From assembly GCF_024223415.1 (NCBI RefSeq), contig NZ_CP100500.1: a DNA stretch of 64,000 nt, one strand, 5' to 3'. Shown in pieces: positions 6,086-40,072 of the stretch. Position 1 is the first letter of the stretch, and each line of letters starts with the position of its first letter. The DNA comes from Escherichia coli. GTDB taxonomy: Bacteria > Pseudomonadota > Gammaproteobacteria > Enterobacterales > Enterobacteriaceae. The translations under genes were made by a program, and so were the position numbers. Below the pieces are notes generated by a model. It was given only the letters and a program-made list of their open reading frames with translations, did no database searches and was not told the origin of the DNA.

Positions 6086-6091
6086 GACAAG

Positions 6092-6200: not shown

Positions 6201-6247
6201 ACCACCACCACTTGATTAATATTTAACCATGTAGTTAAGGTAACATT

Positions 6248-6682
6248 ATGATTGATAAAGCTTGTTTTGTAAGTCAGCAGGAAATAGCTGAACATTTCAA
6301 TGTTAACAGAACCACTATTCGCGCATGGACCAAACAGGGGATGCCGTATCTTAATGCGGATCGCGGAAAGTCTGGCGGTTATCACATCGGGCATACATTG
6401 TTTTGGTATTCAGGTAAAAGCCATCTTCAGACCATCGGATATCACGTAGAAACCAGTGCGCTGGAAAAAATTATGTTTGCCAGGCTGCTTTCATCTGAGC
6501 GTGACGAGTACTCCAGTGAAGAAACAGAACATCGATTTGATGAAGGTTTGCAGATTTACGGCTATTCACCGGAAGATGTGAGCAAGGCACGAAATAAAAT
6601 GGCTGGCTTTCTGGCTGGGTGGCGTCATGCCGTAAGCGTTCGCCGTGCCAGCATGGAGCAATCAGCCGATACAGAACAGTAA
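6248..6682 (+). CDS. terminase small subunit, lambda Nu1-like (N-terminal winged HTH)
   Basis: 144 aa; QQEIAEHFNVNRTTIRAWTKQGMPYL...HTLFWYSGK aligns with lambda Nu1 KKQLADIFGASIRTIQNWQEQGMPVL...AVIKWYAER; about 90 bp downstream of cosN-like site as in lambda. Confidence 0.7.
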   Translation: MIDKACFVSQQEIAEHFNVNRTTIRAWTKQGMPYLNADRGKSGGYHIGHTLFWYSGKSHLQTIGYHVETSALEKIMFARLLSSERDEYSSEETEHRFDEGLQIYGYSPEDVSKARNKMAGFLAGWRHAVSVRRASMEQSADTEQ

Positions 6683-6729
6683 AGCCGATAACTTGTTAAT
6701 CACGCGCAGCAATGCGTGTGATTTTTGCA

Positions 6730-6850
6730 CACTTCCGGTTAACGGGTACGATGTCCGGTTTGTTTGTACATTTTTTGCACATGTCCGGTTCGCAGAAAGC
6801 ATGTTTTTATATTTTTCAGATAGTTAACTTGCAGAGAAACCGGACATGGA
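6730..6850. repeat. repeated TGTCCGGTT motifs (putative cosB-like terminase small-subunit binding sites)
   Basis: CACTTCCGGTT (6732), GATGTCCGGTT (6759), CATGTCCGGTT (6790) direct, and AACCGGACATG (6839) inverted. Confidence 0.5.
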
Positions 6851-6935
6851 TCCCGAAAAATTTTCATAAATAGTGAAAACGCGCGGGTTCGACGCCCCGT
6901 AACGGGCCATAATTCCAGAAGGACCCGACGACACC
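6830..6935 (-). other. lambda-type cos site 2, inverted relative to cos site 1
   Basis: Reverse complement reads GGGTCCTTCTGG...CCCGTTACGGGGCGTCGAACCCGCGCGTTTTCACTATTTATGAAAATTTTTCGGG, paralogous to site at 6110-6200 and to lambda cos. Confidence 0.65.
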
Positions 6936-6960
6936 AGACTATCAGAGCGATGGGGGCACA

Positions 6961-7242
6961 ATGACAGAAGCCGAACTACTGGGATTAATCCGCCGCGTTA
7001 CCGGAATCAGCCAGCAGCATGACGAACAGGCCACGCAGCCGGACAGCGTGACCGCCGAAAATTATGTGCGTGTTGTTGCGGAGGTGATGCGCCGTGACGG
7101 TATTGAGCTTAACGGCGTGGATATGCGCGACATACGGATCCGCGTTCTGGAAATGCTGGCATACCGTCGCCGCGTGCAGACGTACAGGGAAAAAGCAAAA
7201 ATAACGTACCACTGGAAGAAGCCGGAACGACTGCGTACGTAA
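6961..7242 (+). CDS. hypothetical protein (93 aa)
   Basis: ORF in track; weak RBS; last ORF of element before repeat-rich end. Confidence 0.3.
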   Translation: MTEAELLGLIRRVTGISQQHDEQATQPDSVTAENYVRVVAEVMRRDGIELNGVDMRDIRIRVLEMLAYRRRVQTYREKAKITYHWKKPERLRT

Positions 7243-7366
7243 TACGTACGGACATCGAGATAACGCAAAATTGCGCTGGCTACATCCCTCACATCTGAGG
7301 ACTGATAACAAGCTGCCTGAAAGACAGTCACAAACTACGAAATTTTCGCAGTTTAATTAATGGTCA

Positions 7367-7670
7367 GCTTAATCGCTAACCCGCTGATATTTTCGGAAAC
7401 ATCAATTTGAGGAAGTCGGCGCGGTAACTCGCTGAACTTAAAGCAAAGCGCAAAATTGCGCTGATTACTGGTTGGAATTGTTCCAGAGTGCAAATTTGCA
7501 CTCTGGCCTAACCCGTTGATTATTTCGAAAACCTGCAATGCAGGAAATCGGGGAAGTAAGCCTAAGCTATTGATTGTTTCGAAAACCACCATTGGGGGAT
7601 GTCGGGAAAGTAAGACTAACCCATTGATTCTTCCACAATCCTCAATGTGAGGAGGCCGGACATCGTGACA
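7367..7670. repeat. four imperfect direct repeats of about 54 bp (CTAACCCNTTGAT...GTAAG), three in tandem
   Basis: Units at about 7373-7427, 7507-7560, 7562-7615, 7616-7670 share CTAACCC(G/A)(C/T)TGAT ... TCGG..AAGTAAG and each contains a short internal inverted repeat. Confidence 0.6.
7483..7506. promoter_or_regulatory. 24-bp perfect palindrome CCAGAGTGCAAATTTGCACTCTGG
   Basis: Perfect dyad symmetry seen directly; nearby related inverted repeats GCGCAA-AA-TTGCGC at 7448-7461 and CGCAA-AA-TTGCG at 7264-7275. Confidence 0.5.
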
Positions 7671-7954
7671 GAGCGTGACAACCAGGTAACTAATCTCGCT
7701 GGTGGGCGTGATGTCGATATGGTGATCCCCATAACGGGTTATCCGTGATCATCCACCAGCTTCATGGCAGATAGCCGGAAAATGATAACGGTTAAGCAAA
7801 ACTGCCAGCAAATTTCCCTTTTGTTTGTTATTGTTCGTCGTTGTTCGTAGAGCTTCAACAAAATGTGTGGTCAGTTGTGTGGTCAGTTTTGAGGTTTTTA
7901 ATTCTTATGTGCTGAAAAACTTATTAATTATCAACTGATAACAAAAATTAGTAA

Positions 7955-8048
7955 GAAATACCCGTATCACCTGATCTGGATAATGCCAGCGTAGGGAAGT
8001 CACGGACCACCAGGTCATTGCTTCTTCACGTTATGGCAGGAGCAAACT
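7955..8048 (+). promoter_or_regulatory. 3' portion of thiM TPP riboswitch (thi-box) and expression platform; 5' half of aptamer absent
   Basis: GAAATACCCGTATCACCTGATCTGGATAATGCCAGCGTAGGGAAGT matches the well-studied E. coli thiM aptamer 3' half from memory; expected upstream GGGGTGCCCTTCTGCGTGAAGGCTGA is replaced by AT-rich unrelated sequence. Confidence 0.6.
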
Positions 8049-8837
8049 ATGCAAGTCGACCTGCTGGGTTCAGCGCAATCTGCGCACGCGTTACACCTTT
8101 TTCACCAACATTCCCCTCTTGTGCACTGCATGACCAATGATGTGGTGCAAACCTTTACCGCCAATACCTTGCTGGCGCTCGGTGCATCGCCAGCGATGGT
8201 TATCGAAACCGAAGAGGCCAGTCAGTTTGCGGCTATCGCCAGTGCCTTGTTGATTAACGTTGGCACACTGACGCAGCCACGCGCTCAGGCGATGCGTGCT
8301 GCCGTTGAGCAAGCAAAAAGCTCTCAAACACCCTGGACGCTTGATCCAGTAGCGGTGGGTGCGCTCGATTATCGCCGCCATTTTTGTCATGAACTTTTAT
8401 CTTTTAAACCGGCAGCGATACGTGGTAATGCTTCGGAAATCATGGCATTAGCTGGCATTGCTAATGGCGGACGGGGAGTGGATACCACTGACGCCGCAGC
8501 TAACGCGATACCCGCTGCACAAACACTGGCACGGGAAACTGGCGCAATCGTCGTGGTCACTGGCGAGATGGATTATGTTACCGATGGACATCGTATCATT
8601 GGTATTCACGGTGGTGATCCGTTAATGACCAAAGTGGTAGGAACTGGCTGTGCATTATCGGCGGTTGTCGCTGCCTGCTGTGCGTTACCAGGCGATACGC
8701 TGGAAAATGTCGCATCTGCCTGTCACTGGATGAAACAAGCCGGAGAACGCGCAGTCGCCAGAAGCGAGGGGCCAGGCAGTTTTGTTCCACATTTCCTTGA
8801 TGCGCTCTGGCAATTGACGCAGGAGGTGCAGGCATGA
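8049..8837 (+). CDS. thiM: hydroxyethylthiazole kinase
   Basis: 262 aa ORF, recognised ThiM sequence; overlaps thiD start. Confidence 0.95.
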
Positions 8838-15841: not shown

Positions 15842-15990
15842 GCCTTATACGGACAACACCACCCCGTAGGACGGATAAGGCGTTTACGCTGCATCCGGCA
15901 ACCTATGCCTGATGCGACGCTGAAGCGTCTTATCATGCCTACATAGCACTGCCACGTATGTTTACACCGCATCCGGCATAAAAACACGCG
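15842..15990. repeat. REP/BIME cluster
   Basis: Multiple GCCGGATGCGGCG / CGCATCCGGC-type palindromic units. Confidence 0.7.
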
Positions 15991-16000
15991 CACTTTGCTA

Positions 16001-16029
16001 CGGCTTCCCCCGGGAGGCCGTTTTTTTTG
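16001..16029 (+). terminator. rho-independent terminator
   Basis: CGGCTTCCCCCGGGAGGCCG hairpin followed by TTTTTTTT. Confidence 0.6.
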
Positions 16030-16089
16030 CCTGTCATTCTGGATTAATTTTCACATTGTCGTTTTTGTGATCGTTATCTCGACATTTAA

Positions 16090-18289
<2,200 letters not shown>

Positions 18290-18298
18290 GGACGGTAT

Positions 18299-18751
18299 AT
18301 GACTAACCTGTTTGTTCGTAGCGGAATTTCTTTTGTCGATCGTAGCGAAGTTTTAACCCATATCGGTAATGAGATGCTCGCCAAAGGTGTGGTTCATGAT
18401 ACCTGGCCACAGGCATTAATTGCCAGAGAAGCAGAATTCCCTACCGGGATAATGCTTGAGCAGCACGCTATTGCAATACCGCATTGTGAGGCGATTCATG
18501 CTAAGTCGTCAGCCATTTATCTGTTAAGGCCAACAAATAAAGTTCATTTTCAGCAAGCGGATGATGATAACGACGTGGCGGTATCGTTGGTTATTGCGTT
18601 GATTGTGGAAAATCCGCAGCAGCAATTGAAACTTTTACGCTGTTTATTTGGCAAGTTACAACAGCCCGATATCGTCGAGACACTAATCACTCTTCCTGAA
18701 ACCCAGTTAAAGGAATACTTCACAAAGTATGTTTTAGATTCAGACGAATAA
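18299..18751 (+). CDS. gatA: galactitol PTS EIIA component
   Basis: 150 aa, operon position. Confidence 0.9.
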   Translation: MTNLFVRSGISFVDRSEVLTHIGNEMLAKGVVHDTWPQALIAREAEFPTGIMLEQHAIAIPHCEAIHAKSSAIYLLRPTNKVHFQQADDDNDVAVSLVIALIVENPQQQLKLLRCLFGKLQQPDIVETLITLPETQLKEYFTKYVLDSDE

Positions 18752-18781
18752 ATCCCTCTGTAACAATAAAAAGGACTATTT

Positions 18782-19066
18782 ATGAAACGCAAGATTATTG
18801 TCGCTTGCGGAGGCGCGGTTGCGACCTCTACGATGGCGGCGGAAGAAATTAAAGAGTTGTGTCAGAATCATAATATTCCTGTTGAATTAATCCAGTGTCG
18901 GGTTAATGAAATAGAAACCTATATGGATGGTGTGCATTTGATATGCACCACTGCCAAAGTGGATCGTAGTTTTGGCGATATTCCGTTAGTTCACGGCATG
19001 CCTTTTATTTCTGGTATCGGTATCGAAGCATTACAAAATAAAATTCTGACTATCTTACAGGGGTGA
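18782..19066 (+). CDS. gatB: galactitol PTS EIIB component
   Basis: 94 aa, operon position. Confidence 0.9.
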
Positions 19067-19069
19067 CCT

Positions 19070-20425
19070 ATGTTTTCAGAAGTCATGCGTTATATTCTCG
19101 ACCTCGGCCCTACGGTGATGCTGCCGATTGTCATCATTATTTTTTCTAAAATATTAGGCATGAAGGCAGGCGATTGCTTTAAAGCGGGTCTGCATATCGG
19201 GATTGGCTTTGTTGGCATTGGCCTTGTGATTGGCTTAATGCTGGATTCCATTGGCCCGGCGGCGAAAGCGATGGCGGAAAATTTCGACCTGAATCTGCAT
19301 GTGGTCGATGTTGGCTGGCCGGGCTCTTCACCAATGACCTGGGCGTCGCAAATTGCGCTGGTGGCGATTCCGATTGCGATTCTGGTTAACGTGGCGATGT
19401 TACTGACCCGTATGACGCGGGTGGTAAATGTTGATATCTGGAATATCTGGCATATGACCTTCACCGGCGCGTTGCTGCATCTGGCAACCGGTTCATGGAT
19501 GATAGGGATGGCAGGTGTGGTAATTCACGCGGCGTTTGTTTATAAGCTCGGCGACTGGTTTGCCCGCGATACCCGAAATTTCTTTGAGCTGGAAGGTATT
19601 GCTATTCCGCACGGTACGTCGGCGTATATGGGGCCGATTGCGGTGCTGGTCGATGCTATCATCGAGAAAATCCCAGGCGTTAACCGAATTAAATTTAGCG
19701 CCGACGATATTCAGCGCAAATTTGGTCCATTTGGCGAGCCTGTCACCGTGGGTTTTGTGATGGGGCTGATTATCGGCATCCTCGCGGGTTACGATGTCAA
19801 AGGTGTATTGCAGCTGGCGGTAAAAACGGCGGCAGTGATGCTGCTAATGCCACGGGTGATTAAACCCATCATGGATGGTTTAACGCCCATCGCTAAGCAG
19901 GCTCGTAGTCGTTTACAGGCGAAGTTCGGCGGTCAGGAGTTCCTGATTGGCCTTGATCCGGCGTTGCTGCTGGGACATACGGCGGTGGTATCGGCAAGCC
20001 TGATTTTTATCCCACTCACCATTTTAATTGCTGTTTGTGTGCCGGGTAATCAGGTGCTGCCGTTTGGCGATCTTGCCACCATCGGCTTCTTCGTGGCGAT
20101 GGCGGTCGCCGTGCATCGTGGAAATCTGTTCCGCACCTTAATCTCGGGTGTCATCATTATGAGCATCACCCTGTGGATCGCGACGCAAACTATTGGTTTG
20201 CACACCCAACTGGCGGCTAATGCTGGGGCGTTAAAAGCCGGGGGTATGGTGGCTTCAATGGATCAGGGCGGTTCTCCCATTACCTGGTTACTGATTCAGG
20301 TTTTCTCCCCGCAAAATATTCCCGGTTTCATTATTATCGGTGCAATTTATCTGACCGGTATTTTCATGACCTGGCGTAGAGCGCGTGGCTTTATTAAACA
20401 AGAGAAAGTCGTTCTCGCAGAATAA
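19070..20425 (+). CDS. gatC: galactitol PTS EIIC component
   Basis: 451 aa polytopic membrane protein. Confidence 0.9.
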   Translation: MFSEVMRYILDLGPTVMLPIVIIIFSKILGMKAGDCFKAGLHIGIGFVGIGLVIGLMLDSIGPAAKAMAENFDLNLHVVDVGWPGSSPMTWASQIALVAIPIAILVNVAMLLTRMTRVVNVDIWNIWHMTFTGALLHLATGSWMIGMAGVVIHAAFVYKLGDWFARDTRNFFELEGIAIPHGTSAYMGPIAVLVDAIIEKIPGVNRIKFSADDIQRKFGPFGEPVTVGFVMGLIIGILAGYDVKGVLQLAVKTAAVMLLMPRVIKPIMDGLTPIAKQARSRLQAKFGGQEFLIGLDPALLLGHTAVVSASLIFIPLTILIAVCVPGNQVLPFGDLATIGFFVAMAVAVHRGNLFRTLISGVIIMSITLWIATQTIGLHTQLAANAGALKAGGMVASMDQGGSPITWLLIQVFSPQNIPGFIIIGAIYLTGIFMTWRRARGFIKQEKVVLAE

Positions 20426-20472
20426 TTTTTACCTGAGGGGGAGGTTATCCCCCTTAACAATCAGGAGTTTTT

Positions 20473-21513
20473 ATGAAATCAGTGGTGAATGATACTGATG
20501 GTATCGTGCGCGTTGCAGAAAGCGTCATTCCTGAAATTAAACATCAGGATGAGGTGCGGGTAAAAATTGCCAGCTCGGGCTTATGTGGTTCCGATTTACC
20601 CAGGATATTTAAAAATGGTGCACATTATTATCCAATAACGTTAGGCCATGAATTTAGCGGCTATATTGATGCGGTGGGATCCGGTGTTGATGATTTACAC
20701 CCTGGCGATGCGGTTGCCTGTGTGCCGTTATTACCCTGTTTTACTTGTCCAGAGTGTCTGAAAGGGTTTTATTCCCAGTGCGCAAAATATGATTTTATTG
20801 GCTCGCGGCGTGATGGTGGATTTGCTGAATATATTGTCGTTAAGCGAAAAAATGTCTTTGCTCTACCCACGGATATGCCTATTGAGGATGGGGCTTTTAT
20901 TGAGCCGATTACCGTTGGTCTGCATGCTTTTCATTTAGCGCAAGGTTGTGAGAATAAAAACGTTATTATTATTGGTGCCGGAACCATTGGCCTGCTGGCC
21001 ATTCAGTGCGCTGTCGCGCTGGGAGCAAAGAGTGTGACGGCGATCGACATTAGTTCAGAAAAACTGGCACTGGCAAAATCTTTCGGTGCGATGCAAACAT
21101 TTAACAGTAGCGAAATGAGCGCGCCGCAAATGCAGAGCGTTTTACGCGAACTGCGCTTTAATCAGCTTATCCTCGAGACGGCTGGCGTACCGCAAACTGT
21201 CGAACTGGCGGTAGAGATTGCCGGTCCTCATGCCCAACTGGCGCTGGTGGGCACGTTGCATCAGGATCTGCATTTAACATCGGCAACGTTTGGCAAAATA
21301 TTGCGTAAAGAGCTGACGGTTATCGGCAGTTGGATGAACTACTCCAGCCCTTGGCCGGGGCAGGAGTGGGAAACGGCGAGCCGGTTGCTGACAGAACGTA
21401 AGTTAAGCCTGGAGCCATTAATCGCTCACCGTGGAAGCTTTGAAAGCTTCGCCCAGGCGGTGCGTGACATCGCTCGTAATGCTATGCCGGGCAAAGTGTT
21501 GCTCATTCCCTGA
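20473..21513 (+). CDS. gatD: galactitol-1-phosphate 5-dehydrogenase (Zn-dependent MDR family)
   Basis: 346 aa; zinc ADH motifs (GHEFSG, GAGTIG). Confidence 0.9.
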   Translation: MKSVVNDTDGIVRVAESVIPEIKHQDEVRVKIASSGLCGSDLPRIFKNGAHYYPITLGHEFSGYIDAVGSGVDDLHPGDAVACVPLLPCFTCPECLKGFYSQCAKYDFIGSRRDGGFAEYIVVKRKNVFALPTDMPIEDGAFIEPITVGLHAFHLAQGCENKNVIIIGAGTIGLLAIQCAVALGAKSVTAIDISSEKLALAKSFGAMQTFNSSEMSAPQMQSVLRELRFNQLILETAGVPQTVELAVEIAGPHAQLALVGTLHQDLHLTSATFGKILRKELTVIGSWMNYSSPWPGQEWETASRLLTERKLSLEPLIAHRGSFESFAQAVRDIARNAMPGKVLLIP

Positions 21514-21612
21514 AACCGCGGGCCAGCGTGATGCTGGCCCGGTATTGTGCAAAACAGATCATTCACCAATGGTCCCCCTTCGTTTACACTAGCCACAATT
21601 GAATATGGGTAA

Positions 21613-22392
21613 ATGACGATGAATTCATTCGAGCGAAGGAATAAGATCATCCAATTAGTGAATGAACAGGGAACCGTGCTTGTTCAGGATCTGGCGGGAG
21701 TATTTGCTGCCTCGGAAGCGACAATCCGTGCCGATTTGCGCTTTCTCGAACAAAAAGGCGTGGTTACGCGCTTTCATGGCGGTGCGGCGAAAATAATGTC
21801 TGGTAATAGTGAAACCGAGACCCAGGAAGTCGGGTTTAAAGAGCGATTTCAGCTCGCCAGCGCGCCAAAAAACAGAATAGCGCAGGCGGCAGTCAAAATG
21901 ATCCACGAAGGGATGACCGTTATTCTCGACAGCGGAAGTACGACAATGCTTATCGCCGAAGGATTAATGACCGCCAAAAATATCACGGTGATTACCAACA
22001 GTCTCCCGGCAGCGTTTGCCCTTTCCGAAAATAAAGACATTACTCTGGTCGTCTGTGGTGGCACGGTCCGCCATAAAACGCGCTCGATGCATGGTTCCAT
22101 TGCCGAGCGTTCATTACAGGATATTAATGCCGATTTAATGTTTGTCGGTGCTGATGGTATTGATGCGGTTAATGGTATTACGACCTTTAATGAAGGTTAT
22201 TCTATTAGCGGTGCGATGGTCACAGCCGCTAATAAAGTGATTGCCGTTCTCGATTCATCGAAATTTAACCGTCGCGGTTTTAATCAGGTACTACCAATCG
22301 AAAAAATTGACATTATTATTACCGATGATGCTGTGTCAGAGGTGGATAAACTGGCATTGCAGAAGACGCGGGTAAAATTAATTACGGTGTAG
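21613..22392 (+). CDS. gatR: DeoR-family repressor of gat operon, apparently intact
   Basis: 259 aa DeoR-like HTH plus sugar-binding domain; uninterrupted ORF. Confidence 0.8.
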   Translation: MTMNSFERRNKIIQLVNEQGTVLVQDLAGVFAASEATIRADLRFLEQKGVVTRFHGGAAKIMSGNSETETQEVGFKERFQLASAPKNRIAQAAVKMIHEGMTVILDSGSTTMLIAEGLMTAKNITVITNSLPAAFALSENKDITLVVCGGTVRHKTRSMHGSIAERSLQDINADLMFVGADGIDAVNGITTFNEGYSISGAMVTAANKVIAVLDSSKFNRRGFNQVLPIEKIDIIITDDAVSEVDKLALQKTRVKLITV

Positions 22393-22396
22393 TATT

Positions 22397-22443
22397 GTTC
22401 TGTATGCCGGATAAGGTGTTTACACCGCATCCGGCATTACGGA
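22397..22443. repeat. REP element
   Basis: GCCGGATAAGG ... CGCATCCGGCA palindromic unit. Confidence 0.6.
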
Positions 22444-22473
22444 TTCTCCCTGGTTCAAGAGAGAATAGTTTGA

Positions 22474-23373
22474 TTAACGCAACAGTGGACAATCTGGTGG
22501 CAGACGGCAACGCAACGCTGCCGGAAGTATTTCAATATGAAAATTTTGCCCACTCAACGGTTCGCCATCAAGATTAAAGGTGATGTCGTGTGGTGCCTGA
22601 ATATCAAACCACGACGAAGCGCCTTCGATAATATTCGGGTTATCTTCGTCAGATTTTAAGGTTGATACGAGAGCCGGAAGTATTTCATCGCCGGTAAAAA
22701 TGCGCAGTTGCAGCAAGCCATCGTTAATTAACGCGTTCGGACACAATTGCTGACCGCCACCGGCCTGACGCCCGTTACCAATACCAATGACCAGGGCGTC
22801 ACCTTGCCAGTGAAAGTTTTCACCGCGGATTTCACAACGGTCCGGTTGCAGAGTATCCATGCGCATTAAGCCATGAATGATGTAAGAGACGCCACCCAGC
22901 GCGGCTTTTAATTTTTCCGGCGTTTCTGTGGTAATACGCGTCCCAAATCCGCCTGTCGCCATATTAATAAAACAGGTTTGTTTGTTGACCTGCGCCATAT
23001 CTATCGCAATGGCGTTACCGGCAATTGCCAGTTTCAGCGCCTTATCCAGTGCCTCAGGAATCCCTACACTGGTGGCAAAATCATTGGCGGTTCCTAATGG
23101 CAAAATTCCCAGCGCGGGTATGTCATCCCCCTCACACTGAATCAACGCCGTAGAAACTTCATTAATGGTGCCATCGCCACCACCGGCAATCACCGTTGCG
23201 ACGCCCAACTTCCGGGCCTCCTCTACATATCGTGCGGCATCGCCTTTCTCCCAGGTGACCCGCACATGGATCGTCATTCCTTCCTCACGCAACAGCATAA
23301 TTGCTTCGCGCAAGGGTAAATTGTCAGTACTTTTGCCATTAAGAATCAGTAAGCTGGCGGGAAATTCTGCCAT
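22474..23373 (-). CDS. yegS: lipid kinase (diacylglycerol kinase catalytic-domain family)
   Basis: Start at [15 protein letters not shown] (ATG at 23373) giving 299 aa; the 355 aa track ORF is an upstream in-frame extension. Confidence 0.9.
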
Positions 23374-23777
23374 GATCGTATGTGCCTTTATGATTGGTCT
23401 GTAGATAGTGTAGAGCAGAAAAGAAAAGGTGGAGTCAGAACAGGATGAAAGTCGGAGGATAAAAGTCAGTTCAAGTATGGAGGATTCAGTGGTTACCACC
23501 AGGAGCTTGCAATGGGGACAGCGAATACTAACGGCAGCCACCGATAAATTTCAAAAAAGAGAATATACCTAATATTCAACTAAACGGTGGCATCTTCAAT
23601 ATAATATATTAAAGCCCTCATGGAGTTACCCGGAAGGGCCTCCATGTCCGTAATTCCTACTTATGTAGGAAATGTTGTACAGAACATTTATTATAATCCT
23701 ATTCAATTATAATAATCATGCCATTATTATATTTAAACACTAGAGAGTGTCGTTGGTATTTAATGGGGGAAGGTGAG

Positions 23778-24095
23778 ATGAAAAAGATAGCTGCTATATC
23801 ATTAATTAGTATTTTTATTATGTCTGGTTGTGCTGTGCATAATGATGAGACAAGTATCGGTAAATTTGGTCTTGCATATAAAAGTAATATTCAGCGTAAA
23901 CTCGATAACCAATACTACACCGAAGCCGAAGCTTCTTTAGCCAGGGGTAGAATATCTGGTGCAGAAAATATAGTAAAAAATGATGCAACTCATTTCTGTG
24001 TTACTCAGGGCAAAAAAATGCAAATAGTTGAGCTGAAGACAGAAGGTGTAGGATTACATGGTGTCGCTCGTCTGACATTCAAATGTGGAGAGTGA
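23778..24095 (+). CDS. yegR: putative lipoprotein (105 aa)
   Basis: Start at MKKIAAISLISIFIMSGCAV (lipobox SGC) with GGAAGGTGAG RBS; AT-rich surroundings. Confidence 0.65.
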   Translation: MKKIAAISLISIFIMSGCAVHNDETSIGKFGLAYKSNIQRKLDNQYYTEAEASLARGRISGAENIVKNDATHFCVTQGKKMQIVELKTEGVGLHGVARLTFKCGE

Positions 24096-24425
24096 GAATA
24101 TTTTTTGGTAAGCGTCAAATATGCGCTTTCTGGCTGTGCGTAGCCGGAACCTGTGGGAGCACGATGCCGATAAGTGAAAGGCATCGTGCTATGAAGGAGG
24201 ATTCTATCGATGTGGTCAATGGAAGACGGTTACCAGAGATAGGGCTTATGCATAAAAAAATAAGCCCGTGTAAGGGAGATTACACAGGCTAAGGAGGTGG
24301 TTCCTGGTACAGCTAGCATTTTATGGGTTATGTTTTTCAGCGAAACGGATGATAACCTTAATAAATGCAGCTGTATGTGATCGGTTTCTAAGAATTTTCC
24401 ATCCGGGAAAAATAATCGAAATTAA

Positions 24426-25787
24426 TCACTTACCGTGTGGGTTACGCGTGGTTTCCCCGGAGAAATTACGCATCAGCAGAGCGTAATTGAGCTCAAGATC
24501 CTGCGGGACCGGGAGCCACACAGTATAACCATCGCCTGGTGCGACCGGCATCGCTTCACCTTTGGCGTTTTCCATGTGCTCAAGGGTAAAGTTAATGTTG
24601 CCTTGCGGCGTCATCAGCTCAAGGCTGTCGCCAACGGAGAATTTATTTTTCACCGCTACCGCCGCGAGGTCCCCCTTGCGCTCACCGGTAAACTCACCAA
24701 CAAACTGCTGGCGGTCAGAAACTGAATAACCGTATTCGTAGTTCTGATAATCGTCGTGAGTATGACGACGCAGGAAACCTTCGGTATAGCCACGATGCGC
24801 CAGACCTTCCAGAGTTTCCAGCAGGCTGGTATCGAACGGTTTGCCCGCAGCGGCGTCATCGATAGCTTTACGGTAAACCTGTGCGGTGCGTGCGCAATAG
24901 TAGAAAGATTTAGTACGGCCTTCGATTTTCAGCGAATGCACGCCCATTTTGGTCAGGCGTTCTACATGGGCGATGGCGCGCAGATCTTTCGAGTTCATGA
25001 TGTAAGTGCCGTGCTCATCTTCAAACGCGGTCATATACTCGCCCGGACGCTGGGCTTCTTCGATCATAAACACTTTGTCGGTTGGCGCGCCGATACCCAG
25101 CGTCGGCTCAACATTTTGCACCGGAATCGGCTCGTACTTGTGTACGATGTTGCCAACGTCATCTTCTTTCCCTTCCTGGACGTTGTACTCCCAGCGGCAG
25201 GCGTTGGTGCAGGTACCCTGGTTCGGATCGCGCTTGTTGATATAGCCAGAGAGCAGGCAGCGACCGGAGTAGGCCATGCACAGTGCGCCGTGAACGAAGA
25301 TCTCGATCTCCATATCCGGCACCTGATTGCGGATCTCTTCAATCTCTTCCAGCGACAGCTCGCGAGAGAGGATCACGCGGGTCAGGCCCATTTGCTGCCA
25401 GAATTTCACCGTCGCCCAGTTTACGGCGTTAGCCTGCACCGAGAGGTGGATCGGCATTTCAGGGAAGTGCTCACGCACCAGCATAATCAGCCCTGGATCG
25501 GACATAATCAGCGCATCCGGCCCCATTTCCACCACCGGTTTCAGGTCACGGATAAAGGTTTTCAGCTTGGCGTTGTGCGGTGCAATGTTGACCACGACAT
25601 AAAACTTTTTCCCCAGCGCGTGGGCTTCATTGATGCCGAGCTGAAGATTTTCGTGGTTGAATTCGTTGTTGCGCACACGCAGGGAGTAACGCGGCTGGCC
25701 CGCATAAACAGCATCTGCGCCATAAGCGAAAGCGTAACGCATATTTTTCAGCGTTCCCGCCGGGGAAAGGAGTTCCGGTTTAAACAT
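24426..25787 (-). CDS. yegQ: peptidase U32 family protein
   Basis: 453 aa, recognised U32 collagenase-like sequence. Confidence 0.9.
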   Translation of the reverse strand: MFKPELLSPAGTLKNMRYAFAYGADAVYAGQPRYSLRVRNNEFNHENLQLGINEAHALGKKFYVVVNIAPHNAKLKTFIRDLKPVVEMGPDALIMSDPGLIMLVREHFPEMPIHLSVQANAVNWATVKFWQQMGLTRVILSRELSLEEIEEIRNQVPDMEIEIFVHGALCMAYSGRCLLSGYINKRDPNQGTCTNACRWEYNVQEGKEDDVGNIVHKYEPIPVQNVEPTLGIGAPTDKVFMIEEAQRPGEYMTAFEDEHGTYIMNSKDLRAIAHVERLTKMGVHSLKIEGRTKSFYYCARTAQVYRKAIDDAAAGKPFDTSLLETLEGLAHRGYTEGFLRRHTHDDYQNYEYGYSVSDRQQFVGEFTGERKGDLAAVAVKNKFSVGDSLELMTPQGNINFTLEHMENAKGEAMPVAPGDGYTVWLPVPQDLELNYALLMRNFSGETTRNPHGK

Positions 25788-25933
25788 AATTCTCTCGTTC
25801 TGATGACAGGTCAGATCCGCTTCACCTGATGAAGCGGTTAGGGGAGTGCCCCCACTTTAAGGGCGGGCATTGTAGCGCTGTGGGGGGATCTGGTAAAGCG
25901 CCGGACGCCAACAACCCACGCCCGGCATCGTAA

Positions 25934-26266
25934 TTACGTATTGTCTTTCACCGTCTGGCTTGTGCCATTGGCTTTAACGGAGGCAATTCCGGTTTCACGA
26001 GATTGCGCGGTGGCGTACATCTGGCTGGAGCCGATAATTTGATGATTAGCGGCTTTCAGATTGAAATAGAATTTGCCGTTACTTGCCGTTTTTTTCTCAT
26101 AGCGTTCTTCTTGCGGGCTGTTGCTACGCACCGACGCGATGCCCTTTTCCGCAGAGGCTTTTGAGGTATAAAGCTCGCTGGTGAGGATAGTCTCACCATT
26201 GCCCGCTTTTAGCACAAACCGGAACTGATTATCACTGCTCTTACTGAGTTCAAACCAACCAGCCAT
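25934..26266 (-). CDS. yegP: UPF0339 family protein (110 aa)
   Basis: Start at MAGWFELSKSS; tandem duplicated motif; track ORF has 13-codon upstream extension. Confidence 0.8.
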   Translation of the reverse strand: MAGWFELSKSSDNQFRFVLKAGNGETILTSELYTSKASAEKGIASVRSNSPQEERYEKKTASNGKFYFNLKAANHQIIGSSQMYATAQSRETGIASVKANGTSQTVKDNT

Positions 26267-26456
26267 AATGACTCCTTGATTGAAATTGTGTATCGAAAAC
26301 AGCATCTAAAGGTGCTGTTTACCGATTAAAGTATGAGCGATTTTCTGATGCCTGCCAGGGCGGAGAGATAATGTCAGTTTGCTGACCATGCGTGGGATAA
26401 TGTTGCCGGATCTGGTCTGAACGCCATCTCCGGCTAACAAAATAATGTCGCTAAAA

Positions 26457-27179
26457 CTAAACGATGCGGCAGGCGTCGGCTTCCCAGCGGTAACCGACGC
26501 CATAAACGGCGCGGATAAATGACTGTTCGGCGTCGAGAGATTCCAGCTTGCGGCGCAGGTTTTTAATGTGGCTGTCGATGGTGCGGTCGGTTACTACGCG
26601 GTAGTCGTCATAAAGATGATTGAGCAATTGCTCGCGGGAGAACACTTTTCCTGGTTCGTGAGAGAGCGTTTTCAGCAGACGAAATTCCGCAGGCGTCAGG
26701 TCAAGCATTTTACCGCGCCATGAAGCCTGAAAACGACCTTCGTCGATAATCAACGGGCTTTCAGCATCCTGTTGCTGCAACTCGCGCTGCGGTTTGCAAC
26801 GGCGCAAAATGGTTTTGACGCGCGCTACCACTTCCCGTGGGCTGTACGGCTTACAGATATAATCATCTGCGCCAATCTCCAGCCCCAGCAGGCGATCGAT
26901 CTCTTCGATTTTTGCCGTCACCATCACGATCGGAATGTCAGAAAAACGACGAATTTCCCGGCACAGCGTCAGGCCATCGGTGCCAGGGAGCATCAGATCT
27001 AACAGGATCAGATCCGGTGGTGTCTGGCGCACATACGGCAGTACCTGATCGCCGTGGCTGATAAGCGTCGGCGCATAGCTCGCAGCACGCAGATAATCAA
27101 TGAGCAACTGCCCCAGCTTCGGTTCATCTTCCACGATCAAAATACGCGGTGTGTTTTCGTCGATTGGTAACTCGGTCAT
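26457..27179 (-). CDS. baeR: two-component response regulator (OmpR family)
   Basis: 240 aa; receiver domain plus winged helix. Confidence 0.95.
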
Positions 27180-28579
27180 ACTTCTCTCTGTAAATCCCGT
27201 TCCAGCGGTAACTCTACTGTAATGCTTACCCCGCCAAAAGGCGAATGGGCAGCAATAATGCGACCATTATGTGCTTCAACAATGTTCAGGCAAATCGCCA
27301 GCCCCAGCCCGGAACCGCCGCTGGCACGGTTGCGGGAACCTTCGGTGCGATAAAAACGTTCAAACAATTTTTGTAGCTGATCGTCACTGACACCTGGCGC
27401 ACTGTCGGCAAAGGTCAGGCGCACCGTTTTGTCGCGCTGCCCGGCAGAGATTTGCAGGCTGCCGCCGCTGTCAGTGTAGCGCAGGCTGTTTTCCAGTAAG
27501 TTATTGAATAACTGCATTAAACGGTCGCGATCGCCAAATACGGTAATACTGTCTGGCAGGGAAAATTGCAGTTTCAGGCCACGACTGGCGAATCGTTCGC
27601 GAAATGCGCCGCCCGCCACTTCCAGCAGTGGGATCAAATCTACCGGTGCTTTTTGATAGGCGAGAGCGCCTTCATCAGACATCGACAACTGATGGAGATC
27701 GTCAACCAGTTTGGTCAGTGTACCGACCTCCGCCTGTAAAGACGCCACCGTCTCCGGCGTGAATTTACGCACGCCATCCTGAATGGCTTCCAGTTCACCG
27801 CGCAGCACCGCTAATGGCGTACGCAGTTCGTGAGAAATATCGGCCATAAAATCGCGCCGCATTTGCTGGTTTTTCTCCAGTGTGCTGGCAAGCTGGTTGA
27901 AGTCTTGCGCCAGTTTGCCCAGTTCATCTTCACTGGTGGGCGTTACGCGGGTAGTGAAATCGCCCGCCGCCAGTTTGTGCGTGCCATCGACAAGTCGTTT
28001 TACCGGTGCCAGTAAACCGCGCGCCAGCAGAAAAGTGGCAAGTGCCGCGAGTAACGTTGCCAGGGCGACAATCAACCAGCTGGTTTGCCGCTGTTGTTTA
28101 TCGAAATTGATATCAGTATTGCGCGTTAACCGCTCAACGGGGGAGGCGATCACCGCGCCAACTTCCGCACCGTTGACCAGAATGGGTCGCCGTGTACCGT
28201 CAGGTGGAATCGGCGCTCGCGGACCAACCAGCACTTTGTTGTTTTGATCAACCACCCAGAACTGGGTACGCCAGCCGTGCGGTGGCATACCCGGGCCGGG
28301 TTTATCTTCCGAATTATCGTGTTCAAATGAACGCAGGATCTGAAAGACAAAGCGATCATTGTTGCGCAGGAAGCGCCAGTTGCCATGCTGCGCATACTGC
28401 TCGCCAAGCGCATCACTTAACAGTTGTAATCGCTGTTCATTACCATGCTTGATGTAATCAATAAAGCCACGCTCAAAACTGATACGCACCGCCCAGTGCA
28501 TACTGATCAGCAAGACAATGCAGGTGGCGAAAATCGCCAGAAACAGTTTGCCGGTAATACCGGGTCGCCAGAACTTCAT
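27176..28579 (-). CDS. baeS: envelope-stress sensor histidine kinase
   Basis: 467 aa; HAMP, HisKA (HELRTP) and HATPase domains. Confidence 0.95.
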
Positions 28580-29991
28580 TGCGCGCTCCTTTTTCGCCGC
28601 GAAATAGCTACATTTTGATGCGTATCGTTCGGCACTCTGGCAAAGATGAACGCCGGAAGGGCGATGATCAACGCCATGCTAAGCCAGGTGTACATAAAGA
28701 CGGTTTGTGTGGTGCCGCTGTCGACGCTGACATGCTGTGAACCAAAAAGTCCCAGCAACAGCCCGGCGATAGTGACGCCGATACTCATCGACAATTGCAT
28801 AATCATCGACAGCAGGCTGTTGCCGCTGCTCGCCAGATTGTCCGGGAGATCTTTCAGCGTCAGGGTGTTCATGGAGGAGAAACGCGTCGAGTTGACCATC
28901 CCTTGTAAAAACAGGACGAACGGCAAAACGTAGTACCAGCCCAGCAGGGCGGTAGTCATAAACAACAGGGTGACCAGCGACAGACCCAGCGTGGTCGCTA
29001 CCAGTACCCGACGATAACCAAAGCGATTCACCACCTGTACCACAATTCGCTTCATTCCCATGCTGCCAAGCACCATCGGGATCATCATCAGTCCGGCATG
29101 AAACGGCGAGAAACCGAGGCCAATTTGCAGGAAAACCGGTGTCATAAAGGGCAACATGCCACTGCCAATACGTCCGGCAAAGCTCCCCGCCAGGCCCAGC
29201 GAAAAGGTACGAGTACGGAACAGTTTCAGACTGAACAGGGCACGGTTGTTATTTCTGGCGTGCAGCAGATAAAGCACCAGTGCCACCACGCCAACTGCGA
29301 CCAGGCCTGCAATCGTCAGCGGCGATAAACCTGTACCTTTACTGCCGTCCAGCGCCAGGGTTAATACCGCCATGCCAACCGCCAGCAATAAAAATCCGGA
29401 GAGATCAAAGCGCCGCGTCTGCATGGTGTAGTTTGGCATTAACAGCAATGTGGCGATCGCACCGATAATCCCCACCGGAATGTTGATCAAAAAGATACAG
29501 TGCCACGATGCGTACTCCACCAGCAGACCGCCGAGCGCCGGACCGAGCAGCGGACCGACCTGACCGGGTAACGTGACAAAGGTCATCGCCGCCATATATT
29601 GCTCGCGCGGTACGATTTTCATCACCGTCAATCTGCCGACCGGCACCATCATCGCGCCGCCAACGCCCTGTAACGCGCGTGCCAGCAACAGTTCGTTCAG
29701 CGTGCCGGAAAGCGCGCAAAACAGTGAACCGAGAGTAAACAGCACGATGGCGGTAAAGAAAATATTGCGCACGCCGACTTTGTCCGCCAGCCAGCCGCTG
29801 GCGGGCAGCATCACCGCCACGGTCAGCACATAAGAGACAATGACCATGTGCATATGCAACGGACTTTCCCCGAGGCTTTGCGCCATTGAGGGAAGGGCGG
29901 TGTTTACGATGGTGGTGTCCAGCGACTGCATAAAGAAGCCGAAAGCCACAATCCACAATTGCCAACGGGTGCTGTCGGGAAGATCTGTCAT
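28576..29991 (-). CDS. mdtD: MFS efflux transporter
   Basis: 471 aa, 14-TMS MFS-like. Confidence 0.95.
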
Positions 29992-32900
29992 TTACTCGGT
30001 TACCGTTTGTTTAGGTTTACGCGAAAAACGCAGCCGCAGACGGTCGAAAAAGAGATACACCACCGGCGTGGTATACAGCGTAAGGAGCTGGCTCATTACC
30101 AGTCCGCCGACAATGGTGATCCCCAGGGGTTGCCGCAGCTCCGAGCCGTCGCCGCCCGACAATACCAGCGGCAGCGCACCAAACAGCGCCGCCAGGGTAG
30201 TCATCATAATCGGGCGAAAACGCAGCAGACAGGCCTGGAAAATAGCTTCCTGCGGCGTCAGGTTACCGTGCCGTTGGGCTTCAAGCGCAAAATCGACCAT
30301 CATAATGGCGTTTTTCTTCACGATGCCGATTAATAGCATGATCCCTATCAGGGCGATTAGGCTGAACGGGGCATTGAACAGCTCCAGCGCCAACAGCGCT
30401 CCAACGCCCGCCGAGGGCAGGGTGGAGAGAATCGTCAGCGGATGTACGTAACTCTCGTAAAGGATACCCAGCACGATATACACCGTGGCGATGGCGGCGA
30501 TAATCAGGATCACCTGCGAGTTCATCGTCTCCTGGAACACCTGCGCCGTGCCGGCAAAACTGCCGCGCACCGTCGAAGGCACACCAAGCTGGGTCATTGC
30601 GCGATCGATCGCCGCACTGGCGTCCGAGAGCGATTTTCCGGTCGGCAGGTTAAACGAAATGGTCGAGGCCGCCGATAATCCCTGATGATTCACCGATAGT
30701 GGGGCATTCGCCGGTTGCCATTTAGCGAAATACGACAGCGGGATCGCTTTGCCTTCGTTATTGATAACGAACATTTTTTCCAGCGCACTGATGTCCTGGG
30801 TATAGCGCGGATCCACTTCCATCACCACTTTATACTGGTTCATCGGCTGGTAAATGGTCGAGATTTGCCGCTGACCGAAGGCGTTATTTAACAGACTGTT
30901 GGCGGCTTGTACGTCGATTCCCAGCCGTGCCATGGTGTCGCGGTCGTAAACCAGATTCATCTCCGCGCCGTTATCCTGCTGATCGGAGTTCACGTCCGCC
31001 AGTTCCGGCAACGTCGCCAGTTTTTTGCGGATTTTCGGCTCCCATTCTCGCAGTGCCGCCAGGTCGTCGGATAACAACGTGTACTGGTAGCTGGCGTTCG
31101 ACTGACGCCCACCAACGCGAATATCCTGTACCGCCATCAGGAACAGATTCGCCCCCGGTTCTTTCGCCAGTTTTACGCGCAGACGGTCGATAATTTGCTG
31201 CGCCGTTTCGCTGCGTTCGTCGCGTGGCTTGAGGGTGATAAACATCATCCCGCTGTTCACTCGCGAACCGCCTGTAAAGCCGGTGACATTATCCACTGCC
31301 GGATCGTCACGGATAATTTTCATGAAATCCTGCAACTTACCGCGCATCGCCTGAAACGAAATACTCTGATCCGCCTGAATCCCGCCCATCAACACGCCAG
31401 TGTCCTGCTCCGGGAAGAAGGTTTTCGGGATCGAGATATACAGCCAGATATTCAGCGCAATGGTGCCAAGCAGCACCACGCCCACCAGACGGGTATGATT
31501 GAGCACCCATTTCAGTGACTTGCCGTAGCCTTGTTGCAGGGCTACCAACATGCGACCAAAACCACGCAGTCGCTTTTGCTCGCGCGGCTTGCTGGCTTTC
31601 AGCATCCAGCCACACATCATTGGCGTTAATGTCAGAGAAACCAGCAACGATATACCAATGGCGACAGAAAGCGTCACGGCAAATTCGCGTAACAGTCGGC
31701 CCGGCAATCCGCCCATCAACAGCAGCGGCAGGAACACCGCCACCAGTGACAGACTCATCGACAGCACCGTAAAACCGACTTCGCGAGTACCTTGCAGTGC
31801 GGCTTGCAACGGTTTCATTCCCGCTTCCAGATGACGTGCAATGTTTTCCAGCACCACGATGGCGTCATCCACCACGAAACCAGTAGCGATGGTGAGCGCC
31901 ATTAACGAAAGGTTATTGAGACTGAATCCGCACAGGTACATCGCCGCAAACGTACCAATCAGCGAAACCGGCACCGAAACGGCGGGAATAATAGTGGCGC
32001 GACCCGAGCGCAGGAATAAAAACACCACCAGAATCACCAGCGCCACCGAGATAATCAGCGTTTGCTCGACTTCTTCCAGCGAGGCGCGAATGGTGGGGGA
32101 GCGATCCTGGGCAATTTGCAGATCAATCGCCGCCGGAATGGTTTCCTGCAACTCCGGTAATTTTGCCCGGATGCTGTCAACCGTCTGGATAATATTGGCT
32201 TCCGGCAGTTTGCGGATCATCAGTAAAATAGCCGGTTTGGCGTTGGTCATCCCGGCGTTGCGCACATCCTGCACTGAGTCGGTCACCGTCGCCACATCGC
32301 CCAGACGAACCGCGCCGCCGTTGTTGTAGTGAATAATCAACGGCTGATATTCAGCGGCGGTTTTTAGCTCATCATTGGTCTGGATCTGCCAGCGGTGAGT
32401 GCCATCTTCCAGCGCGCCCTGCGGTTTACGCACGTTGGCATTGCTGACGGCGGTGCGTACGTCGTCCAGCGACACGCCCTGATTAAACAGCGCCTGCGGA
32501 TTCAGCCCGACGCGTACGGCGGGCAGTGAGCTGCCTCCGACATCGACATCACCAACACCGTCGATTTGCGAAATCGTCGGAGCCAGCTGCGTCGAGGCGA
32601 AATCGTACAGTTCACCCTGCGAATAAGTATCGGACGTCAGCGTGAGGATCATAATTGGTGCATCCGACGGGTTCGCTTTGCGATAGGTCGGGCGGCTGGG
32701 CATCCCACTGGGCAGCAAACTTTGTGCAGCGTTGATCGCCGCCTGCACATCACGCGCTGCGCCGTTGATATCCCGGTCAAAATCAAACTGCAAAATAATA
32801 CGCGTGCTGCCGAGCGAACTGCTGGAGGTCATTTCACTGACTCCGGCAATGCGCCCAAGTGAGCGCTCCAGCGGCGTGGCAACGGAAGACGCCATTGTTT

Positions 32901-37669: not shown

Positions 37670-37810
37670 AACGGGAAAGCCCCTCCCGAGGAAGGGGCCT
37701 TAAATAAGGAAAGGGTCATGATGAAGCTACTCATCATCGTGGTGCTCTTAGTGATTAGCTACCCAGCATACTAAGACTACCAGGGCGGGGGAAACCCCGC
37801 TCTACCCTCA
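37670..37810 (-). ncRNA. Sib-family antisense sRNA (antitoxin), copy 1, approximate bounds
   Basis: On minus strand: -35 TTGACA (rc of 37839-37844) and -10-like CATACT downstream of ibs stop; hairpin GCCCCTCCCGAGGAAGGGGC at 37679-37699 as terminator; bounds inferred. Confidence 0.45.
37718..37774 (+). CDS. Ibs-family type I toxin peptide (MMKLLIIVVLLVISYPAY)
   Basis: 18-codon hydrophobic ORF with AAGG RBS, below six-frame track length cutoff; resembles IbsA-E peptides. Confidence 0.7.
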   Translation: MMKLLIIVVLLVISYPAY

Positions 37811-37997
37811 CTCCTGAAAGTATGCCTTCACGATAAGATTGTCAATCCGCAGGATTTGCCGTCTGCGATCCTGCCAGCAAAAATTCTTTGCGAGACGTTA
37901 CGCAATAATCACACTGGAAACTATTTTATCTGCAAGTCAGCGATAGACTAAGTGCATGGCGAAAGGAGGTAAGCCGACGATTTCAGCGGGACGCTGA

Positions 37998-38138
37998 AAC
38001 GGGAAAGCCCCTCCCGAGGAAGGGGCCTTAAATAAGGAAAGGGTCATGATGAAGCTACTCATCATCGTGGTGCTCTTAGTCATAAGCTTCCCCGCTTACT
38101 AAGACTACCAGGGCGGGGGAAACCCCGCTCTACCCTCA
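37998..38138 (-). ncRNA. Sib-family antisense sRNA, copy 2, approximate bounds
   Basis: Same promoter and hairpin elements as copy 1 within repeat 2. Confidence 0.45.
38046..38102 (+). CDS. Ibs-family type I toxin peptide (MMKLLIIVVLLVISFPAY)
   Basis: Second repeat copy, 18-codon hydrophobic ORF. Confidence 0.7.
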   Translation: MMKLLIIVVLLVISFPAY

Positions 38139-38327
38139 CTCCTGAAAGTATGCCTTCACGATAAGATTGTCAATCCGCAGGCTTTGTAGTCTGCGATCCT
38201 GCCAGCAAATATTCTTTGCGAGTCGTTACGCAATAATCACAGAGGAAACTATTTTATTCACGCGTTAGCGATAGCCTGCATTCAGGGCGAAAGGAGGTAA
38301 GCCGATGATTTCAGCGGGACGCTGAAA

Positions 38328-38470
38328 CGGGAAAGCCTCTCCCGGAGAAGAGGGCTTTTAATAAGGAAAGGGTTATGATGAAGCACGTCATCATACTGGT
38401 GATACTCTTAGTGATTAGCTTCCAGGCTTACTAAGAACACCAGGGGGAGGGGGAAACCTCTCCCTAACCC
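38328..38470 (-). ncRNA. Sib-family antisense sRNA, copy 3, approximate bounds
   Basis: Divergent copy; hairpin AGCCTCTCCCGGAGAAGAGGGCTTT at about 38335-38358. Confidence 0.4.
38375..38434 (+). CDS. Ibs-family type I toxin peptide (MMKHVIILVILLVISFQAY)
   Basis: Third, more divergent repeat copy, 19-codon hydrophobic ORF. Confidence 0.7.
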   Translation: MMKHVIILVILLVISFQAY

Positions 38471-38654
38471 TCACTCCTGAAATTATGTCACTCCGCCCTT
38501 AGTGTCAATCGACGGCTCTCCGTTCTTGCGAGGCGAATAGCAAAATTTTCTGCGCCGCCGGGCCTAATTCTGAAAGTTTCTTCGTTTGCTCTTATTTCAT
38601 TATTGCAGTCGGTATGATACCGGACCTCAATAATTCTCTAAGAAAGGATTTCTT

Positions 38655-39314
38655 ATGAGCGAACAAATCACGTTTGCCACCAGCGATTTTGCCAGTAACC
38701 CGGAACCACGTTGCCCCTGCATTTTGCTGCTGGATGTTTCTAGCTCGATGAGCGGCAGACCCATTAATGAACTTAACGCCGGATTGGTTACCTTTCGCGA
38801 TGAGCTGCTTGCCGATTCGCTGGCCTTAAAAAGAGTGGAACTCGGTATTGTGACGTTCGGCCCGGTGCATGTGGAACAACCCTTTACCAGCGCCGCTAAC
38901 TTTTTCCCGCCCATCCTGTTTGCCCAGGGGGATACGCCAATGGGGGCCGCCATTACCAAAGCCCTGGATATGGTTGAAGAGAGGAAACGTGAGTACCGCG
39001 CAAATGGTATTTCGTATTATCGCCCGTGGATTTTCCTGATCACCGATGGCGCTCCAACCGATGAGTGGCAGGCTGCCGCCAACAAAGTGTTTCAGGGGGA
39101 AGAAGATAAGAAATTTGCCTTCTTTTCCATCGCTGTTCAGGGGGCGGATATGAAGACGCTGGCACAAATCAGCGTTCGTCAGCCTTTGCCTCTGCAAGGA
39201 TTACAATTCCGTGAACTGTTTAGCTGGTTATCCAGTTCGCTGCGTTCGGTTTCCCGCTCCACGCCGGGAACGGAAGTTGTGCTGGAAGCGCCAAAAGGCT
39301 GGACGTCAGTGTGA
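38655..39314 (+). CDS. yegL: von Willebrand factor A (vWA / TerY-like) domain protein
   Basis: 219 aa; MIDAS motif [11 protein letters not shown]; overlaps start of next gene. Confidence 0.85.
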
Positions 39315-40072
39315 GCTGGCGTCTGGTTTATGCATCCGCTGTTGGAACGTCGCACATTAGCGCTGATTTACCTTGTCAGGATGCCTGCCAGATGCAGGTT
39401 GCCTGGTTAAACGATCAGCAACCATTACTGGTGATGTTTCTTGCTGATGGTGCAGGCAGCGTCTCGCAGGGTGGCGAAGGCGCGATGCTCGCCGTCAATG
39501 AAGCGATGGCTTATATGTCGCAAAAAGTGCAGGGTGGGGAATTGGGGCTTAATGATATCCTCGCCACGGATATTGTGCTGACTATTCGTCAGCGACTTTT
39601 TGCCGAGGCGGAAGCCAAAGAATTAGCAGTTCGCGATTTTGCCTGCACGTTTCTGGGATTGATTTCATCGGCTAATGGCACCTTGATTATGCAGATTGGC
39701 GATGGCGGCGTGGTGGTGGATTTTGGTCACGGTCTGCAATTGCCGCTTACGCCGATGGTGGGTGAATATGACAATATGACGCACTTCATTACCGATGAAG
39801 ATGCCGTTTCCAGACTGGAAACTTTCACCAGCACTGAGCGTGTGCATAAAGTTGCAGCATTTACGGATGGTATCCAGCGACTGGCGTTAAATATGCTGGA
39901 TAATTCTCCTCATGTACCTTTCTTTACCCCGTTTTTCAATGGACTGGCGTCAGCAACGCAGGAACAACTCGATTTATTACCTGAATTGTTAAAGCAGTTT
40001 TTGTCCAGCCCGGCGGTAAACGAGCGTACGGATGATGATAAAACGTTGGCACTGGCGCTGTGGTTACCATGA
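39311..40072 (+). CDS. yegK: PP2C-family Ser/Thr protein phosphatase
   Basis: 253 aa; PP2C-like acidic metal-binding motifs ([14 protein letters not shown]); overlaps kinase start. Confidence 0.8.

Follow-up and report, generated by a model that had tools for sequence, protein, structure and literature searches.

The closest described counterpart of the region considered here is the galactitol (gat) locus of Escherichia coli K-12, whose repressor gene, gatR, is not intact. In strain MG1655 an insertion inactivates gatR, leaving the gat operon constitutive, and regulation of gat was restored by an intact gatR from E. coli HS; gatR also acquires new IS insertions in the mouse gut (PMC5850726). 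In one passage the paper names the MG1655 element as IS1, while the RefSeq record gives IS3E. In this record (NC_000913.3) a segment of 1,258 bp at positions 2170171-2171428, annotated as "insertion sequence IS3E" with insE5/insF5, divides gatR into two pieces. A second segment of 611 bp at positions 2167201-2167811, between yegQ and yegR, is annotated as "cryptic prophage PR-X" and contains ogrK and the pseudogene yegZ, a fragment of the P2 gene for gpD. Both K-12 features are mentioned in a preliminary description of the DNA analyzed here, which agrees with the record on both.

PR-X lies at the end of the small RNA gene cyaR, a site known as locI, the preferred site of phage P2, empty in E. 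coli C and holding a P2 remnant in K-12. The occupied site is the reason that P2 integrates elsewhere in K-12. Our literature searches for cyaR together with the P2 attachment site, and for PR-X, ogrK or yegZ, returned nothing specific.

The stretch of DNA that we analyzed, hereafter the window, comprises 64,000 nucleotides of an E. coli chromosome, in the reverse orientation relative to K-12 MG1655 and collinear with it at about 99% identity by BLASTN. Read along the plus strand, the gene order is gatZ, gatA, gatB, gatC, gatD and gatR, followed by yegS, yegR, yegQ (trhP), yegP, baeR, baeS and mdtD-A. BLASTN comparison with NC_000913.3 around gatR and yegR resolved three collinear blocks with identities of 99.2-99.6%: window 16001-21917 corresponds to K-12 2177349-2171429, window 21915-24272 to K-12 2170170-2167812, and window 24255-30000 to K-12 2167200-2161455. 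The first two blocks share 3 bp in the window (21915-21917) at the point where K-12 has the additional IS3E segment, and the second and third share 18 bp (24255-24272) where K-12 has the additional PR-X segment. The arrangement of the window therefore differs from that of K-12 by two segments present only in the latter, as had been proposed from the unaligned sequence.

The window gatR is a single open reading frame on the plus strand. The preliminary description had reported it as uninterrupted with 259 amino acids; the absence of any interruption is correct, but the size refers to the longest open reading frame (21613-22392), and both the RefSeq and K-12 annotations place the start two codons further in, at 21619, which gives a protein of 257 amino acids (21619-22392). 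Both domains of a DeoR-family repressor were found in the one polypeptide, an N-terminal helix-turn-helix (HTH) domain (Pfam HTH_DeoR, residues 6-58, E = 1.3e-16, 60.5 bits against a cutoff of 21) and a C-terminal sensor domain (Pfam DeoRC, residues 83-236, E = 2.5e-51, 174.2 bits against a cutoff of 31.8). The collinear alignment and the position directly downstream of gatYZABCD identify the gene as the ortholog of K-12 gatR, annotated as the DeoR-family repressor of the gat operon, and taking IS3E together with one target-duplication copy out of the K-12 gene yields a protein identical to that of the window.

In MG1655 (gatR::IS3E, b4498) the IS3 copy follows gatR nucleotide 299 and is flanked by a 3-bp GAC duplication, the junctions reading GAAGGGATGAC followed by TGATCC at one end of the element and AGATCA followed by GACCGTTATTC at the other. 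The window carries neither the element nor the duplication: the GAC is present once, unoccupied, at 21915-21917, in codon 100. The two strains also differ in gatC, which encodes the PTS galactitol IIC component. The window copy (19070-20425, plus strand; 1,356 bp, 451 amino acids) is open and intact according to the open reading frame list and the RefSeq annotation of strain 181.1, which is identical here, whereas the MG1655 copy has 1,358 bp, with an additional GG after nucleotide 914 that shifts the frame and makes it a pseudogene. Between gatC and gatR, gatD (20473-21513, plus strand) encodes galactitol-1-phosphate 5-dehydrogenase, as assigned from the open reading frame list and the annotation of the 100% identical region of strain 181.1. 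With GatR whole, and going by the literature on K-12 and HS (PMC5850726), the window strain is predicted to repress its gat operon and to induce it on galactitol, with galactitol or its phosphate relieving the repression. In having an uninterrupted gatR the window resembles other natural isolates with a functional gene, as well as E. coli HS, for which the likeness is taken from its description in the literature.

Downstream of gatR are yegS (22474-23373, minus strand), annotated as a lipid kinase of 299 amino acids (Pfam DAGK_cat, 5.2e-29; YegS_C, 1.1e-10), and yegR (23778-24095, plus strand; longest open reading frame from 23718), a small protein of 105 amino acids and unknown function, annotated in K-12 and 181.1, to which no Pfam family could be matched. 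Beyond these lies yegQ/trhP (24426-25787, minus strand), assigned from the open reading frame list and annotation to a tRNA U34 hydroxylation protein of 453 amino acids. The preliminary description had found no open reading frame for an Ogr-like zinc-finger protein or a gpD fragment between yegQ and yegR, and this result held: the 611 bp with the Ogr zinc-finger gene and the C-terminal gpD fragment that define PR-X, between cyaR and yegR, are absent from the alignment, and TBLASTN searches of the entire 64-kb window with P2 Ogr, OgrK, YegZ and the 366 C-terminal amino acids of P2 gpD, allowing E values up to 10, gave only hits expected by chance, the best with E = 1.6.

The gap between yegR and yegQ is not featureless, however, as it contains two elements that had been overlooked. 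The first is cyaR (ryeE; 24258-24343, minus strand), which is annotated in K-12 and matched the Rfam family RF00112 over its full length, scoring 100.7 bits where the gathering score is 47. It ends in an intrinsic terminator, in which the hairpin GCCUGUGUAA-UCUCCC-UUACACGGGC is followed by a run of U residues. The second is an unoccupied P2 attB core of 27 bp (24255-24281, minus strand; AATCTCCCTTACACGGGCTTATTTTTT in the minus-strand reading), identical at 27 of 27 positions to P2 sequence AF063097 24356-24382, which is annotated as "attP" and "Int attP core". The core spans the loop, the 3' stem arm and the U-tract of the cyaR terminator. Integration of P2 would regenerate the 3' end of cyaR because the core is duplicated. 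K-12 shows this arrangement, with a complete core beside cyaR and P2-like DNA after it. The cyaR sequence of the window is the same as that of K-12 except for the length of the U-tract; the terminator is followed by phage DNA in K-12 and by the chromosomal yegR side in the window. That the site is used in nature is indicated by K-12 PR-X itself and by two further strains, H1827/12 with a prophage and BS-01 with a remnant, at exactly the cyaR-side position. Based on the perfect core, the window strain should be lysogenizable by P2 at this site.

The structure of PR-X bears on which of the two states came first. On its left side a complete core adjoins cyaR and is followed by P2-like DNA, 96.7% identical to that of the phage, which takes in ogr and the final 219 bp of gene D. 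At its right edge the gene D sequence directly abuts the final 17 of the 27 core bases (17-18 bp are shared), so that this edge marks an illegitimate deletion rather than a normal attR. The same chromosomal position that is empty in the window is thus filled in K-12 by ogrK and the D fragment, with a truncated core on the right. PR-X cannot excise because it has no integrase and its attR is truncated, and therefore the empty site of the window is original rather than the product of a secondary loss. The opposite history, in which a K-12-like ancestor of the window lost IS3E by precise excision and also lost the P2 remnant, could draw on the seamless junctions, since one GAC and one att core are what a precise excision would leave. 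However, excision by Int from a right att site of 17 of 27 bases could not restore a perfect 27-bp attB, which effectively refutes this history, and the substitutions (0.4-1.5%) and several other indels that separate the window from K-12 also speak against it. We consider it very improbable, also in view of how the two states are distributed.

To place the window among other strains, we counted both states in 5,426 complete E. coli genomes, a set that over-represents laboratory and clinical strains, so that the percentages given here are not natural frequencies. An 8-kb query (window 19000-27000) matched 5,424 of these genomes. The gatR gene was matched in 5,109 and had no match in 317; it was covered to at least 80% in one place in 4,756 (about 88%), counts of this kind being slight overestimates as they take in a few small inserts, such as the IS1 in gatR of BLR(DE3) and the 0.4-kb remnant of BS-01. 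The att site, as a segment of 160 bp centered on the core, was uninterrupted in 4,207 (about 78%). The empty state is therefore found in about 78-88% of the genomes, with identities as low as about 95-97%, whereas the exact K-12 gatR::IS3E junction was fully covered in only 345 (about 6%). The K-12 PR-X remnant was matched at 99% identity or more in 364 records; matches of weaker identity are P2-like prophages at various sites. Carriers of the K-12 junction and remnant are largely K-12 and its laboratory derivatives. A widespread empty state and a junction confined to 345 genomes are difficult to reconcile with a secondary loss in the window, and we conclude that the window has the majority arrangement and that K-12 is the derived exception.

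The same comparisons address the concern that the missing IS element and remnant reflect repeats that were collapsed or skipped during assembly. Assemblies are well known to go wrong at IS elements, but such elements usually break contigs and seldom vanish leaving exactly one copy of the target, and PR-X is not repetitive. In addition, the 8-kb segment is 100% identical to that of finished genomes, e.g., strains 181.1 and Combat11I9, and the same arrangement is present in thousands of complete genomes. An assembly artifact is accordingly the least credible of the explanations considered, with next to no probability.

No evidence was found that contradicts an ancestral empty state, and the window almost certainly represents the ancestral, unoccupied order gatD-gatR-yegS-yegR-cyaR-yegQ, from which K-12 would be derived by two unrelated events. 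In one, a copy of IS3 (IS3E) would have transposed into codon 100 of gatR, duplicating GAC and cutting the DeoR-type repressor between its HTH and sensor domains, which makes the gat operon constitutive. In the other, a P2-like phage would have used its tyrosine integrase to enter the 27-bp attB overlapping the cyaR terminator; a later deletion from inside gene D into the right-hand att core would then have removed nearly all of the prophage, leaving ogrK and 219 bp of D.

The proposal that this region has been a recurrent target for mobile DNA is borne out by other strains and by published work. BLR(DE3) has IS1A in gatR at about nucleotide 237, a position that differs from that of IS3E in K-12 (nucleotide 299), and NCTC9080 has IS1A in gatD. 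In WCHEC025985, ISKpn26 of the IS5 family is located between yegS and yegR, and in EH10-18-47 an IS3 is located between yegR and yegQ, on the yegR-cyaR side. The annotation table lists an IS3-family transposase inside the 8-kb match in three further strains. As for phages, H1827/12 carries a degraded P2-like prophage of about 15 kb at the cyaR site, with the integrase adjoining yegR and ogr adjoining yegQ, and the remnant of BS-01 at the same site is a 0.4-kb piece of the gpD gene; P2-like prophages also occur elsewhere. The original proposal lumped together two mechanisms that are distinct: site-specific integration at a dedicated attB, and independent IS insertions of three families at scattered positions.

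For the IS insertions, several of which, in different strains, lie in a span of about 5 kb, an intrinsic preference of the elements for the target sequence or DNA structure of the gat-yegR segment might be envisaged in place of selection. The gat locus has indeed been termed an IS "hotspot" in K-12 lineages (PMC9997739), and some target bias is possible in view of the intergenic insertions, for which there is no obvious selective explanation. Yet the three IS families involved (IS1, IS3 and IS5/ISKpn26) follow different target rules, and their positions differ (gatR at about nucleotide 237 and at nucleotide 299, gatD, yegS-yegR and yegR-cyaR). Moreover, in experimental evolution in the mouse gut both gat-constitutive and gat-negative mutants were strongly selected (PMC5850726). 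An intrinsic hotspot without a role for selection is therefore unlikely, although less so than the alternatives discussed above, and the scattered pattern together with the mouse-gut experiments probably points to selection on galactitol metabolism over target preference. Recurrent mobile DNA at this locus would then reflect a dedicated phage attachment site on the one hand and, on the other, IS insertions in and around gat that have probably been kept by selection on galactitol metabolism.

The suggestion that the DNA comes from a non-K-12 background was also correct. The window lacks the K-12 gatR junction and the PR-X remnant (345 of 5,426 genomes and 364 records, respectively) and differs from K-12 by the above substitutions over 56 kb; further differences are the intact gatC, the absence of yegJ, a third copy of the Sib/Ibs locus (SIB RNA; K-12 has two), and a satellite island beside thiM. 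The difference at gatR and at the P2 site is real but ordinary, and it was already known, as RefSeq annotates the K-12 features and published work covers the gatR insertion with its effects. Beyond strain typing it matters little: it marks the source as a natural E. coli other than K-12, whose galactitol operon is presumably regulated and whose P2 site beside cyaR is free. K-12 is the unusual strain at the gat/P2 locus, where constitutive gat expression shapes gut-colonization experiments, and the population counts quantify how atypical it is.

The satellite island, 14 kb from gatR, is a separate matter. The window from position 1 to about 7953 has no K-12 counterpart and contains genes for a P4-type primase, SSB, a major head protein, a head decoration protein, a connector-like protein and a small terminase. 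Similar elements are annotated in CFT073, among other strains. Strain PKF11 has a related element of about 11.5 kb, encoding an integrase and AlpA, in the interval from rcnR to thiM. The island is a PICI-type phage satellite. Its integration point is a 14-bp block of identity, AGAAATACCCGTAT, and in PKF11 the same 14 bp are repeated at both ends of the element.

The right end of the island in the window (at about 7953) is inside the aptamer of the thiM TPP riboswitch. While the K-12 riboswitch scores 71.2 bits with the Rfam model RF00059, the window sequence scores 36.4 bits, under the gathering score of 54.3, and the 5' strands of P1 and P2, all of P3 and most of the CUGAGA motif are replaced by island DNA. 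The island brings no replacement for these parts, so that the riboswitch is split and thiMD retains only its 3' half. The other half can be seen at the attL of PKF11, where the integrase is preceded by the thiM promoter together with the 5' half of the aptamer; the window itself starts inside the island. A simple scan for sigma-70 promoters over window 6900-8100 found no promoter-like site. The predicted fold of the truncated thiM leader is like the ligand-free form in which the ribosome-binding site is open, and from this model thiMD would probably lose TPP control while the satellite is resident. Literature searches on thiM together with PICI or cf-PICI elements turned up no paper that connects them. 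We tentatively raise the possibility that the riboswitch serves as an attachment site for satellites, which would affect regulation in the host and perhaps in the satellite as well. The thiM-side junction is present in 75 of the 5,426 genomes.

The right boundary of PR-X, the cryptic P2 remnant that K-12 MG1655 carries between cyaR and yegR (ogrK and the gpD fragment yegZ), lies at L001 7813-7830 of the K-12 locus, as against 24255-24281 in the window, where the P2 attachment site is unoccupied. This boundary is a deletion junction: gene D sequence is fused there to a shortened att core that retains its final 17 bases out of 27, and the remnant is therefore fixed in K-12 and cannot excise. At the same cyaR site, E. 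coli H1827/12 has a degraded P2-like prophage that includes genes for an AAA ATPase and an "ABC-three component system" (L004 29340-33029 of that strain's locus). These genes are flanked by the portal gene and a replication gene, and the arrangement resembles the hotspot for anti-phage genes already known in P2-like phages (cf. PMC9122126). The gat operon has a further K-12-specific lesion: gatC is an open frame of 451 aa in the window (19070-20425), whereas it is a pseudogene in MG1655 owing to a frameshift caused by an extra GG after nucleotide 914.

The right-hand portion of a PICI-type phage satellite occupies window positions 1-7967, and encodes a P4-type primase (825-2573), an SSB (3116-3526), a major head protein (4257-5312), a head decoration protein (5324-5659), a connector-like protein (5672-6085) and a small terminase (6248-6682). 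The satellite insertion point is inside the aptamer of the thiM TPP riboswitch, at a 14-bp identity block (AGAAATACCCGTAT), with the satellite/thiM junction at 7954-7967 and the thiM ATG at 8049. In the window, island DNA stands in place of the 5' half of the aptamer, and the Rfam TPP score is 36.4 bits versus 71.2 bits in K-12 (gathering score, 54.3). In strain PKF11, which has a related satellite between rcnR and thiM, the island integrase is preceded by the thiM promoter and the 5' half-aptamer. This thiM-side junction was found in 75 of the 5,426 complete E. coli genomes. We predict that TPP control over thiMD is probably lost in the satellite carrier.

Elsewhere, the window lacks (at ~40060-40114) a K-12 segment of about 790 bp (2150934-2151720) that comprises yegJ (DUF2314) with its flanking sequence; here yegI (40060-42009) directly adjoins or overlaps pphC (39311-40072), as is also the case in H1827/12. 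The SIB RNAs (Sib/Ibs type I toxin-antitoxin) are present in three tandem copies at 37703-38508, compared to two in K-12 (sibA and sibB) and four Ibs genes in H1827/12, which shows that the repeat varies in copy number. Two other RNA matches, the REP-derived element naRNA4 downstream of fbaB/gatY (15869-15939; Rfam, 64.5 bits) and the JUMPstart element upstream of the colanic-acid wza operon (53606-53644; 57.3 bits), are features expected in E. coli.
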